Below, piece after piece: positions 1 through 3,000 of a stretch of 22,631 nucleotides of DNA. The first letter of the stretch is position 1; each line of letters starts with the position of its first letter. This stretch comes from a bacterium (GTDB lineage: Bacteria; Eisenbacteria; RBG-16-71-46), in assembly GCA_043779265.1 (NCBI GenBank), contig JAYWEM010000089.1:1-22631 (forward strand), in the 5' to 3' direction. Position numbers: made by a program.

Positions 1-3000
1 GCTGTCCGAGGGGCGTCCGAGCACGCGGCGGCGCACGCGCTCCATGCCGACGTAGGGGTCGCCCACCATCTTGCCGTCGGCATCGAATCCGGTCATGTCC
101 TCGTCGTCGTCCCGATCGCGTTCGTCATCGTCGTAGCCGACGCTCTCGGCCTGCGGGTCGTACGGCCGCAGGTACCAAGGCAGATCGCGGAACGATTCGC
201 GCGATGCGATGGCGACGAGGAAGCCCTGACCGGTCGAGCGCTCCACCACCAACTCGGTGCGCGAGCCCTCGGGCGGAAGCCGCAGCGTGTGTCGGCCCTC
301 GACGAATCCACTGCCGCGCCTCCAGGGGTGGAGCACCTGGATGCGGCCCTCGGTGTCGATCTCGTACACGAGCAGATGCGCATCGTCGCTCGAGCGCACC
401 TTGATGGTCATCCGCTCACCCGGCTGGTAGACCGCGTCGTCGCCGCGATCCGTCCAGACCTCGACTCCGAGTGGTCCGGCGAGCGCCTCGGCCGGCATGG
501 CGAAGGCCCCCACGAGGAGGGCGAGTGCCGGGACGATGGATCGGAAGTTCATGACGTGCTCCTCACTGGCGGGACTCCGCGGAACCGGGCGCCGGTCGGC
601 TCCGATGCCCCGCCCTCTCGGGGATGATACCCCGGGAGGGCGGGGCGCTCTCCTGGAACGCTAGCGGATCCAAGCCACTGCTCGGCGCTGACCCGTGGTC
701 TCGTCGCGGACGCGCCGTGCGGCGAGTTCGGGATTGCCGGGGTCGGTCTGGTAAGCCCAGTCGAACACGACCTGGCCCGAGGTGAGGCTGGTGACCCTGA
801 ACTTCGCGTAGTGGTCATCCCGGGTCCAAACGACGTAGCAGTGACCGGGGATCAGCTCGACCGTCCCACTGGGCGACCAGCCCGAACTCGGGGCCCAGTC
901 CACCGCATCGAGGGTCGTGGCGTAGCCGGCGTCCTGGATATCGGTGAGCCCGTCGGCCGCGAACATCTGCGCGATGCTGCCGTTGTAGCCGTAAAAGACG
1001 TCGGTCGAGGAGTGATCGAAGGCCCGCGTCGCGCCCGATGAGAAGTCGTAGCCGGCGCTCGAGGGGTTGCTGACGAAGTTCGACAGCGTGCGGCCGAACC
1101 CGGCCGGTCGTGGGGTGTCGAACACGCTCTCGTAGGTCAGATCGCTCTCGTTGCCCTCGTGGTCGACCGCGGCGACGGCGAAGTAGCGGGTCGAGCCATT
1201 CGAGAGGCCCGAGACGACGAAGCTCGTGCCGCTCGTGGTGCCGACCCGATCGTAGGGACAACTGGACCCGGTGGCGCACTGCGCCATGTAGACGCGGTAG
1301 CCGGCGACGTCGTGCTCGGTGTTGCGAAGCCAGCGGAGCGTGGCCTGCTGATCGCCGGTGACGCTGATGAGGCCGCGTGGGGCGGCCGGGGGCGTGATGT
1401 CGCGCGGCGAGACGACCTTGTCGTCATCGCAACTGGTCAGCAGCGTCACGGACGCCAGTGCGATCGCGATAGTGGCAAGACGCATGGGGTCCCTCCTGAT
1501 CGGATCGGGTCGGGTCGGGGAGTCGCTGTGGCGCTTATGTGCAGCGCAACGGACATGCCACGCGCGAGGGCCGCGATCGAGAGTGGGGCGGGTCGCAGGC
1601 GCGAGGAGGTTTCCTCAAGCGCCGCAACACGTTGCGCCGGACGCAAGACCGCCGCCGGGTCTCGGCCCGGCGGCGGCGTGGTGTGCGCGCCTGTCTCAGG
1701 TGTGCGAACGGCGCGACACCGGATACTGGGGGACACCGGCCGGTGCTTCTCACAGCGTCCGCCTGGACATCCCCCAATGTAGGCGAGCGATATGACGTGG
1801 CCGGTGTCCGACCCCAGAGCTTCTGGAACCTCAGGTGGTTCACCGCGAACCGGGTTCCAGTGCGGTGAGGTCCGAGGCCGTCCCTCCGTCTGCTCCAGGG
1901 GTGCAACTCGAAGATGTCGTGAGATCCCGATTGGTAATCTCCAAGCTAGCCGGTAGCAGAGGCCGATGCGTTGTCCGTCAGACGGGGCTCGTACCCTCGA
2001 CCGACCCCTGCGGAACCGGCTAGCTCAGATTTCGAGGCCGGTGATCGCTCACCGGTTCTCTTTGGAGGTCCCCCCCTCCGACGAAGTACACGAGCACCCC
2101 GCGTGCCAACGCGGCCAACAGCTGTTCGGAAATCGACAAGAAGTGCGTTCACTTGATGTTACGGACCAGCGCACGAGAGCGGTGGTGAGCCCTCTCGGTG
2201 GCACGGACCACCCCGGATAGGAAGAGAAGTTCATGGAAAACGCCCCGCGCACGGAACTCGTTGCGCGGGGCGTAGATGGATGGAAAGGAATTTGATAGCG
2301 CAATTCAGAAGAAAGTCTTCAGGTCGGGCTGCGATGGCAGGGGCGCCTGTGAGACACCTTCATGCCCGACTCTCGAAGTCAGGCAGAGATGTTCAGCGCT
2401 GCTCGAGCCCGAACGCCCGGATGCGCTGAAGAAGCGTGGGGTAGCTGAGCCCCAACTCCCGCGCCACGCGCGTCTTGTTACCGCGATTGCGCTCGAGCGC
2501 CTCGCCGATCAGCTGCCGTTCCATCTCGGTGACCGCGCTCTTGAGTGAGCGATCCCCGCGCGGCGGGGCACCCACCGCCACCGTGTCGCGCTGCAACACG
2601 GGAACGCGCGCCGACGACGCGGTGCTCTCGGCCACATCGGCCGGCAGCAGGTCGAGGCCGAGCGTGTCGCCCTCGTCGGCGAGCACGATCATCCGCTTCA
2701 CGGTTTTCTCGAGTTCGCGGACGTTCCCCCGCCACTCGTGATCCAGGAGCGCCTTGAGCACTTCCGGGGCGAAGCCGCGCACGGCCTTCTCCATCTGCCG
2801 CGAGTACACGGCGAGGAAGTGCTGCGCGAGCACCGGGATGTCCTCGCGCCGCTCGCGAAGCGAGGGCACTCGGACCGTGATGTCATTGAGTCGGTAGTAG
2901 AGATCCTCGAGGAAACGTCCGTCGCGGATCCGCTCGCGCAGATCGCTGCTCGTGGCGCAGACGACTCGCGCATCGACTCGCTTGGCGCGGGTCGCGCCGA

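Follow-up and report, generated by a model that had tools for sequence, protein, structure and literature searches.

The window analysed here, all 22,631 nucleotides of contig JAYWEM010000089.1, contains a noncoding RNA gene on its minus strand, with a predicted transcript that is driven by a sigma-54 promoter and extends from about position 2082 to 1731, possibly to about 1642. The initial annotation had recognized an element of about 145 nt, which is the 5′ third of this gene; conservation and structure continue for another 200–300 nt, so that the full RNA is two to three times longer. Past the 5′ third come first a variable domain and then a hairpin that covaries strongly and bears a second G-rich loop; a hairpin resembling a terminator follows, as does a sigma-54 promoter that serves the lipoprotein gene separately. 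Comparison among related genomes establishes the anatomy, structure and synteny of the gene. Our preferred reading of its function, which we hold with somewhat better than even confidence, is that it specifies a standalone, Hfq-independent base-pairing RNA that would exert Qrr-like negative feedback on the sigma-54 activator encoded just upstream.

The host is an uncultured bacterium from soil and sediment. The features of its locus, in the direction of minus-strand transcription, are:

5596–5895, minus strand: small gene whose protein looks exported (found in 79 of 80 family loci and 16 of 26 distant ones)
5504–5595, minus strand: activator leader with a conserved hairpin (about 5567–5540) whose loop is CGAACC
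2393–5503, minus strand: activator, a TPR-GAF-AAA+-HTH sigma-54 enhancer-binding protein (by Pfam)
5479–5492, minus strand: predicted target, a C-run in codons 5–7 of the activator (ATC CCC CCC GAT) in the loop of a 4-bp GAUC/GAUC hairpin
2281–2297, no strand assigned: enhancer-like palindrome T(A/G)T(A/C)AA-N5-TT(T/G)A(T/C)A, right half degenerate in the present genome
2094–2108, minus strand: P1, sigma-54 promoter (−24/−12); RpoN is present in the genome
2064–2079, minus strand: D1, GGAGG/CCUCC hairpin with a G-run loop, the part invariant across the phylum and the predicted seed
2038–2055, minus strand: D2, small variable hairpin (fold below −5 kcal/mol in 85% of 72 loci)
1940–2029, minus strand: D3, long rod ending in a three-way junction (core 2002–1984)
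1812–1901, minus strand: D4, branched variable hairpin with a recurrent CCCGGU motif
1731–1809, minus strand: D5, rod of three stems with the invariant G-rich loop GGGGGAUG (1775–1768); first possible 3′ end
1680–1720, no strand assigned: D6, fixed-length tandem palindromes of the TGT..ACA type, likely a DNA element
1641–1677, minus strand: terminator-like GC-rich hairpin with a weak tail (z = −3.6); second possible 3′ end (about 440 nt)
1546–1560, minus strand: P2, sigma-54 promoter of the lipoprotein operon (81 of 82 loci)
661–1485, minus strand: lipoprotein with an FN3-like domain, first gene of an envelope/export operon

The components of the shorter element are all confirmed in the sequence, namely the sigma-54 box (2108–2094), the GGAGG/CCUCC hairpin (2079–2064), the small hairpin (2055–2038) and the multi-helix rod (2029–1940), which has a closing stem of 15 bp and z = −6.5 (equalled by 0 of 200 shuffles). 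The P1 box lies 28–30 nt ahead of the D1 hairpin in all 87 loci (85 by script pattern, 2 by eye), and we infer a start near 2082. The distance from this start to the end of D5 has a median of 342.5 nt (72 loci); the RNA is likely to be about 350 nt long, or about 440 nt with read-through to the downstream hairpin, the latter being likely in the present genome. The statement that no terminator follows must be revised, as many genera have a U-rich tail after D5, and the present locus has a GC-rich hairpin at 1677–1648. A terminator-like hairpin is found in 33 of 60 loci, with a mean of 5.4 T in the following 10 nt; a simple terminator scan of the present window did not call the 1677–1648 hairpin because its tail is weak.

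The named pairs of D3 are paired in 90.0% of 1593 cells. Covariation in D3 stands as a count of two-sided changes (62, against 22.7 ± 4.6 shuffled) but not as a count of the pairs that show one, since the observed 9 was reached by 132 of 500 shuffles. The “invariant 17-nt core” holds within the RNA's own family and fails beyond it, where the loop differs in a sister family. With regard to a tRNA-like module, D3 has only a T-arm-like 3-bp hairpin. D5 covaries strongly (92.5% of 1356 cells paired; two-sided changes 80 against 24.0 ± 4.2, affecting 15 of 24 pairs), and its G-rich loop is kept in 75 of 82 loci. The D1 and D5 loops are predicted to be mostly unpaired (0.63 and 0.66). A pseudoknot between the D3 C-run and the D5 loop was discarded, no covariation being seen by eye. 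D6 was likewise rejected as an RNA hairpin: its lengths are fixed, and its variable spacers, in register, pair no better than shuffles (0.508 against 0.483 ± 0.023), although one off-register count exceeded most shuffles (13 of 2000) and D6 can fold. The distance from D6 to P2 is steadier than that from D6 to D5 (SD 18.6 vs 30.9, n = 59), and D6 is more likely a DNA enhancer of P2 than RNA structure.

The family is absent from catalogues. We weighed the Rfam 15 families Qrr, Pxr, GlmY/GlmZ, CrcZ, CsrB/Rsm, 6S and Y RNA, with the gathering threshold as criterion. Between positions 1300 and 2900 the Rfam 15 covariance models gave six weak matches, the best with E 0.62, all far under cut-off and none near its gathering score, as the initial annotation had found, and eight distant loci gave a single match (E 0.02, 25 of 39 bits). 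Identity with 6S RNA or bacterial Y RNA (YrlA) was rejected: the 6S-like match of this genome (45.3 bits, cut-off 46.4) lies on another contig, and a search for the Ro60 partner of Y RNA gave no TROVE match in the genome. SAM-I, twister, hammerhead, HDV and group II domain 5 were compared by eye, and Rfam gave no match to any of them. A literature search, covering papers apart from their supplements (where large motif screens might lie), found none on this RNA.

Within its family the RNA is as regular as had been reported, with BLASTN matches in 86 of 89 genomes, 44 of 44 high-quality genomes and 28 of 28 genera. Its supposed confinement to that family, with 0 of 13 genomes positive in the sister families, is contradicted by a D5 covariance model that matches 8 of 10 genomes in one sister family, and by a promoter-plus-hairpin pattern that matches 8 of 10 and 3 of 3. 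The promoter and 5′ G-loop hairpin occur in 164 of 206 genomes of the phylum, nearly always singly. Four of ten further genomes queried yielded no locus at the set threshold, so that the distant survey covers families other than f6, f14, f15 and f16. The body of the RNA is lineage-specific, from about 135 nt up to an mRNA carrying an AAA+ ATPase, and D1 heads an mRNA in families f4 and f5. One model match (G170, E 0.003) is a false positive within a coding region, and the viral contigs searched gave no match.

The activator has 1036 aa, a GTG start and an intact GAFTGA motif, and its start codon and ribosome-binding site are conserved. The reported synteny is upheld: the activator ends upstream of the RNA in 85 of 87 loci (the other 2 are without upstream DNA) and the lipoprotein gene comes next in 81 of 87 (the other 6 are on short contigs). 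Among 86 family loci, 53 have their best palindrome site at −214 to −217; in distant loci, 28 of 37 match 11 or 12 of its 12 positions, against 0 of 37 shuffles, and the palindrome, 215–230 nt upstream, travels with the activator through the phylum. It is a candidate for the site at which the activator would bind to serve the RNA promoter, and from the synteny and the co-travelling palindrome it is plausible that the activator switches on P1. The locus has what is expected of an sRNA linked to sigma-54 and an enhancer-binding protein, that is, a −24/−12 promoter at fixed spacing in a genome with RpoN, and an adjacent activator with intact GAFTGA and a conserved putative enhancer upstream. The proposed co-regulation of the RNA with the lipoprotein operon (whose further genes in relatives encode DUF4384, UPF0164/PorV-like, trypsin-PDZ protease and amidase proteins) is unsupported, because P2 has a different enhancer-like element.

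In RRNPP systems a TPR regulator adjoins a small exported pro-peptide gene. The small protein encoded upstream of the activator has a signal-peptide-like start, an invariant G[E/D]PD motif and a hydrophobic C-terminal helix, and has no Pfam match. On the input side only, the locus resembles RRNPP-like sensing in having a TPR regulator next to a small exported pro-peptide-like gene with a short conserved motif, and the small protein is a candidate pro-peptide ligand of the activator's TPR domain. Peptide binding is predicted weakly (complex score 0.48, best control 0.00), and none of the 35 solved structures matched by sequence is of the RRNPP family. Unlike RRNPP systems, the output here is a sigma-54 AAA+ activator and an RNA.

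The evidence for the predicted target lies in the activator's first codons. CCC occupies codon 6 in 81 of 82 loci and codon 7 in 71 of 82 (CCG in 1); farther along these genes Pro is most often encoded by CCG (149 of 275), and in the present genome CCC-CCC makes up 73 of 2072 Pro-Pro pairs. The third positions of codons 5–8 are 85–98% identical (86 genomes), compared with 46–81% for the most frequent codon in the GDLHLAAD block that closely follows (63 genomes), and the 4-bp stem flanking the C-run is intact in 70 of 86. These comparisons indicate that the C-run is under selection at the nucleotide level, though it could be kept for another reason, such as a protein site or ribosome pausing on Pro-Pro. 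As in Qrr-type feedback sRNAs, a conserved seed is complementary, by computation, to the activator start region: by D1 loop complementarity the activator ranks 6th of 2628 start regions, but only 214th by D5 and 268th by the whole of D1, and the seed is a low-complexity one of 7–8 bp. Outside the family, with distant start codons picked by eye and kin not independent, 15 of 30 genomes, from 6 of 10 families, have a perfect D1 complement of at least 7 nt between −45 and +60 relative to the start of the activator, against a background of 7.2% of start regions in one genome (the present one). These sites are at about −32, −10, +4, +13 and +46 to +53, in both coding and non-coding sequence; three reach 10–11 nt, and in G153 a G-to-A change in the D1 loop faces an extra U.

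The correspondence is not universal. Families f4, f5, f7 and f8 (13 of the 30 genomes) keep D1 with no complement of at least 7 nt near the activator start, and therefore other D1 partners probably exist; two of six f13 genomes also lack a complement, and G015 and G053 keep both loops with the C-run broken. D1 probably has more targets, and no second conserved one was found among the 30 loci examined. In the activator leader, the loop CGAACC can pair with GGUUCG just 3′ of the Shine-Dalgarno GAGGG (5516–5512); among 81 leaders, with kin not independent, 57 have both motifs, 18 have neither and 6 are discordant, and the leader of the present genome alone folds no better than shuffles. Pairing of D4 CCCGGU with leader ACCGGG (co-occurring in 48 of 78) was reduced to a lead because the activator ranks 558th of 2628 and the motif recurs in D3 and D5.

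In the feedback mechanism, the TPR-GAF activator would bind the palindrome at about −215 and fire P1; the G-rich loops would pair with the C-run in the hairpin loop of the activator mRNA, first through D1 and with D5 offering a second site; and this pairing would block initiation, closing a negative feedback loop like that of Qrr on luxO. The invariant D3 core is without explanation in this model. Hfq dependence, a Qrr-type trait, is not indicated, there being no Hfq match in this 92%-complete genome by a search whose controls matched in 5 of 14.

That the element is not RNA at all, but DNA binding sites or a small protein gene, is scarcely credible: D6 and the −215 palindrome do have the character of DNA sites and D5 contains an invariant ATG, but D3 and D5 show two-sided changes, G-U cells in D5 outnumber A-C cells by 157 to 18, anchor spacings occur in all three frames with none conserved, and a small protein from the D5 ATG is rejected because its frame lengths are inconsistent (1 to at least 200 codons). 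A cis-acting leader of the lipoprotein operon, either attenuator or riboswitch, is very improbable. The lipoprotein gene is on the same strand at a fixed distance, both hairpins have weak tails in the present genome, and D1 stands at the head of an mRNA in f4 and f5; against this, the operon has its own sigma-54 promoter in nearly all loci, in relatives the element finishes with U-tails or a terminator hairpin, and no Rfam riboswitch match or alternative fold linked to the downstream start was seen. Fixed promoter spacing, covariation, the G-U excess, the lack of a conserved frame and the separate promoter of the next gene all support the initial assignment as a standalone sigma-54-dependent regulatory RNA on the minus strand.

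Two other readings concern how such an RNA might act. It might silence many mRNAs through their ribosome-binding sites, a G-run toehold on C-rich spacers after the Shine-Dalgarno opening D1 and exposing ACCUCC (the anti-SD core). The activator would then be one target among several, which is partly compatible with feedback. D1 is retained in genomes whose activator lacks a site; GAGG or GGAGG forms part of the complement in G196, G139 and G141; spacers between Shine-Dalgarno and start are C-rich in the present genome (37–54% C, counting from the second position); and several start regions pair with D1 over 11–13 bp. However, such start regions are commonplace in GC-rich genomes, the 30 loci compared (one each from the first 30 of 70 matching genomes) have no gene in common apart from a few pairs, and CCUCC is predicted to be paired (unpaired 0.08), so we consider this unlikely. 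A decoy in the manner of CrcZ, CsrB or GlmY, whose loops and invariant D3 core titrate an RNA-binding protein from mRNAs, seems to us distinctly improbable. The D5 loop end ACA..GGAUGU resembles the CsrA selection consensus, the D3 core CGAGGGUACGA nearly repeats the activator ribosome-binding region CGAGGGUUCGA, the scaffold is larger than an 8-nt seed needs, CsrA is present with FliW not found in the genome, and the gene arrangement is that of CrcZ (PMC5113210). But a CsrB/RsmY-type CsrA sponge needs many loop ANGGA motifs and here the median is one per RNA, with none in 24 of 72; for a CrcZ-type Hfq sponge, repeated A-rich motifs are nearly absent (AANAANAA in 4 of 72 loci) and Hfq was not found; both memberships were rejected. 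In addition, most Eisenbacteria CsrAs are predicted to be inactive on a flagellin reporter (PMC13443453), which its authors caution is not the same as inactive, and the decoy leaves unexplained why the complementary site moves between lineages.

Qrr RNAs are about 100 nt long, and CrcZ, which is similar in size to the present RNA, carries A-rich motifs. Several published systems are comparable. In Vibrio, Qrr is a sigma-54 sRNA driven by the enhancer-binding protein LuxO, with qrr1 adjoining luxO (PMC3262071; PMC8043402), and Qrr sRNAs pair with the luxO mRNA in a negative feedback loop (PMC3262071; PMC8043402), by which luxO is repressed (PMC3262071). Qrr RNAs, however, need Hfq and qrr1 is divergent from luxO (PMC3262071; PMC8043402), whereas the present RNA is co-directional with and downstream of its activator, multi-domain, with G-run loops, without sequence match to Qrr and in a genome where Hfq was not found; unlike LuxO, the TPR-GAF activator has no receiver domain. 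In myxobacteria the Pxr sRNA gene lies immediately 3′ of the NtrC-like activator gene pxrR (nla19), and the 260-bp gap carries a sigma-54 promoter and an enhancer, as predicted from sequence; Pxr co-evolves with PxrR and its first stem-loop is essential (PMC5684412). Pxr differs in its three stem-loops and two-component input, the present RNA has no Rfam match to it, and the accessible part of that paper describes no feedback on pxrR (PMC5684412). The Pseudomonas CrcZ gene is directly 3′ of the gene for its activator CbrB and RpoN-dependent (PMC5113210), but CrcZ sequesters Hfq/Crc. The Sinorhizobium NfeR1 sRNA pairs with the translation start region of an mRNA of its own regulating system, NtrBC (PMC10746234); NtrC represses NfeR1 and the target is ntrB, whereas here the activator is predicted both to switch on the RNA and to be its target.

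This single-copy, uncatalogued RNA family extends across most of an uncultured phylum that is common in soils and sediments, and its predicted target is precise and testable. Conservation of that site at synonymous positions, together with its recurrence at different places in other lineages, makes an unusual kind of comparative evidence for a feedback loop, and the same promoter and 5′ hairpin on transcripts from about 135 nt to a full mRNA give a rare view of domain gain and loss in a regulatory RNA. The adjacent gene for a pro-peptide-like protein is a hint of signalling between cells in a phylum in which regulation has gone unstudied. We offer only tentatively, and as rather unlikely, a previously undescribed phylum-wide circuit in which an exported G[E/D]PD pro-peptide would act on the TPR of the sigma-54 activator, which would drive a transcript with D1 (5′) and D5 (3′) G-loop modules for Hfq-free feedback on the activator and other mRNAs, with swappable cargo between them, perhaps lineage-specific structure (135 to about 500 nt) or an entire AAA+ ATPase gene. 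If true, this circuit would couple peptide sensing of the Gram-positive style with an sRNA output of the Vibrio style, and would provide a natural series from sRNA to dual-function mRNA.

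The gap between the genes for the activator (a TPR-GAF-AAA+-HTH sigma-54 enhancer-binding protein) and the FN3-like lipoprotein very probably holds a sigma-54 RNA gene, judging from sequence comparison. The minus-strand sigma-54 box, GGAGG/CCUCC hairpin, small hairpin and stem-closed rod of the initial annotation are all present, the closing stem measuring 15 bp:

2108-2094, minus strand: sigma-54 box of the RNA promoter (P1)
2079-2064, minus strand: D1, GGAGG/CCUCC hairpin with a G-run loop
after D1 and before D3, minus strand: D2, small hairpin
2029-1940, minus strand: D3, rod with a 15-bp closing stem
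between D3 and D5, minus strand: D4, variable branched hairpin
1809-1731, minus strand: D5, rod with loop GGGGGAUG
1677-1648, minus strand: GC-rich hairpin of this genome
1560-1546, minus strand: second sigma-54 promoter (P2), that of the lipoprotein operon, in 81 of 82 loci

BLASTN matches the element in 86 of 89 family genomes (44 of 44 high-quality ones), with the P1 box 28-30 nt ahead of D1 in the 87 loci inspected. The synteny also holds: the activator gene ends upstream in 85 of 87 loci (in the other two there is no DNA on that side) and the lipoprotein gene lies downstream in 81 of 87 (the remaining six are short contigs). Rfam, as originally reported, has nothing near any cut-off for the element. 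Elsewhere in this genome a 6S-like RNA (G000:C103:3050-3241, L090) scores 45.3 bits against an Rfam cut-off of 46.4. Covariation in D3 exceeds shuffles in changed cells but not in changing pairs: over 32 named pairs in 50 of the 87 loci, pairing holds in 90.0% of cells and two-sided changes occur in 62 cells (22.7 ± 4.6 in shuffles), but the number of pairs so changed (nine) is within the shuffle range, and most closing-stem pairs are invariant.

The RNA is longer than the ~145 nt first assigned to it, since the gap beyond D3 contains the structured D4 and D5. This gap is not spacer; between D3 and the start of the lipoprotein gene it mostly spans 410-600 nt. The D5 loop GGGGGAUG is kept in 75 of the 82 loci having enough DNA. 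In 57 loci 92.5% of 1356 D5 cells are paired (only 31-38% in slid controls) and 15 of 24 pairs show two-sided changes, in 80 cells against 24.0 ± 4.2; because the loci are kin, these figures are not probabilities. G-U cells exceed A-C cells (157 vs 18), which favors the minus strand, and anchor spacings, spread over all three frames, show that the RNA encodes no protein. Measured from the RNA start to the end of D5, the median length is 342.5 nt (range 309-481, 72 loci). An additional GC-rich hairpin lies beyond D5 in 33 of 60 loci, where the 12 nt after D5 hold 4.0 T, against 5.7 in the 27 without it. Given the poor D5 tail and the GC-rich hairpin in this genome, the RNA may extend to ~1642; this 441-nt stretch folds at z = -5.7, and a terminator scan called neither of these candidate 3′ ends here.

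Sister families, thought at first to lack the element, do have it: a D5 covariance model matches 8 of 10 genomes of one, and finds four true matches in other families. A pattern of sigma-54 box, 10-16 nt and GGAGGGGGG is present in 164 of 206 phylum genomes, singly except in one genome with two, and its reversed control gave no match in the 206. Six genomes missed by the pattern (four further families and family f13) still carry the box and D1 or a D1-like hairpin 3′ of the activator, which lies upstream in 78 of the 80 collection matches having flanks. Bodies measure ~500 nt in the sister family, ~220 nt in another lineage (D1, hairpin, D5) and, at the shortest, ~135 nt, with D1, one rod and a U-run and without D5. 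This last form, with a single long rod and a clean U-run (L358-L362 and similar loci, family f7), is the simplest member. In families f4 and f5, D1 heads an ATPase gene and D5 stands behind it:

3595-5058 of locus L215 (also L216 and L217): winged-helix AAA+ ATPase (PF22977 + PF00004), between D1 and D5 in a predicted sigma-54 transcript

This ATPase has no match in this genome. Phylum-wide, the invariant part is D1, not the D3 core.

On balance we lean toward feedback by base pairing on the activator mRNA: the G-rich loops of D1 and D5 would pair with a C-run inside its first codons (codons 5-7, 5479-5492) and block initiation. Pairing of an sRNA within the first codons is established to do so, and the outcome should be negative feedback. 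Codons 5-8 read I/T-P-P-D/E in 82 of 86 activator starts, 81 of these 82 having CCC at codon 6 and 71 at codon 7; CCG is the leading Pro codon further along the same genes, and among the 2072 Pro-Pro pairs of this genome 73 are CCC-CCC. Third positions vary freely in an adjoining, equally conserved protein block. All pairs of a 4-bp stem that would present the C-run in a loop are kept in 70 of 86. The D1 loop can form 8 bp with the C-run, and the activator ranks 6th of 2628 start regions of this genome, as called by a simple gene finder; for the D5 loop it ranks 214th. Perfect D1 complements of at least 7 nt lie near the activator start in 15 of 30 genomes from 10 families (background, 7.2% of start regions in this genome), at five different positions, both coding and non-coding. 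Six families have one; the four without it require other partners. In one clade (G045, G047, G052) the D5 loop is gone and the C-run site has been remodelled, but G015 and G053 have a broken C-run and keep both loops. Hfq was not found in this genome, which suits loop-loop pairing.

Alternatively, the D1 3′ strand, an anti-Shine-Dalgarno core, could open on C-rich ribosome-binding sites, but no second conserved D1 target appeared among 30 loci; action of the RNA as a protein decoy is a weaker alternative. The pairing-feedback model does not explain why the D3 core (2002-1984, minus strand) is almost identical to the activator ribosome-binding region (5518-5507, minus strand), a likeness with one fixed A/U difference and seen in this family only. 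In the activator leader (5504-5595, minus strand), the loop CGAACC of a conserved hairpin could pair with bases directly 3′ of the ribosome-binding site; loop and partner motif are gained or lost jointly in 75 of 81 leaders, and cis-repression is possible.

Between the two possible RNA ends lies D6, whose lengths are fixed and whose position tracks P2, while its spacers pair in register no better than chance; we therefore read D6 as a putative DNA enhancer of P2. The family also conserves a palindrome that lies ~215 nt before the RNA start and recurs in 28 of 37 distant loci (0 of 37 shuffles). The proposed co-regulation of RNA and lipoprotein operon is without support, because D6 differs from this palindrome. 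The plus strand at 8707-11603, 3 kb away from the TPR activator gene, encodes a HAMP histidine kinase along with a second sigma-54 activator, of the NtrC type, a candidate for the D6 enhancer. IHF-like sites of the form CAA-N4-TTR occur ~38-55 nt upstream of P1 in relatives (58 matches in 87 loci, 41 at -38/-39); that of this genome is degenerate. In loci L220, L221, L222 and L224 the genes 3′ of the lipoprotein gene encode envelope and secretion functions: DUF4384, UPF0164/PorV-like proteins, a trypsin-PDZ protease, an amidase, or M6 and S8 peptidases that carry FG-GAP and FlgD-Ig domains.

On the input side, a small gene directly precedes the activator gene in 79 of 80 loci of the family and 16 of 26 distant loci:

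5596-5895, minus strand: small exported-looking protein (99 residues, signal-peptide-like start, invariant G[E/D]PD motif)

It is repeated twice in genome G138, and its product is a candidate signalling pro-peptide. Asn and basic residues are invariant in the activator TPR region. In structure prediction, TPR residues 20-520 together with a 38-residue piece score 0.48 as a complex (best control 0.00), which is weak support. Of solved complexes 116 of 157 attain the mark, as do 2 of 215 mismatched pairs, but at scores of 0.60 or less only 18 of the solved complexes do so, along with both mismatched pairs; runs share at least 51% of contacts, with partner pLDDT at least 42. RRNPP-like peptide sensing by the TPR domain is a lead and not a finding. 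Upstream of the small gene lie a Ppx/GppA phosphatase and an ArsR-type regulator, with a divergent RlmN-like gene (6077-7632, minus strand; 7614-8684, plus strand); a Ppx-like gene is also found 5′ of the activator in distant families.

The PxrR-Pxr (PMC5684412) and CbrB-CrcZ (PMC5113210) systems have a working arrangement like this one, and the likeness to LuxO-Qrr (PMC3262071, PMC8043402), where Qrr exerts negative feedback on luxO (PMC3262071), and to NtrBC-NfeR1 (PMC10746234) is feedback. The RNA falls outside the Pxr, CrcZ, Qrr and NfeR1 families, and searches of open-access main texts turned up no account of it. By sequence, then, the element is a new RNA family, as originally proposed, though of a known kind, and is unusual in its G-run seeds, in a genome where Hfq was not found, and in its phylum-wide bookend modules and swappable cargo.
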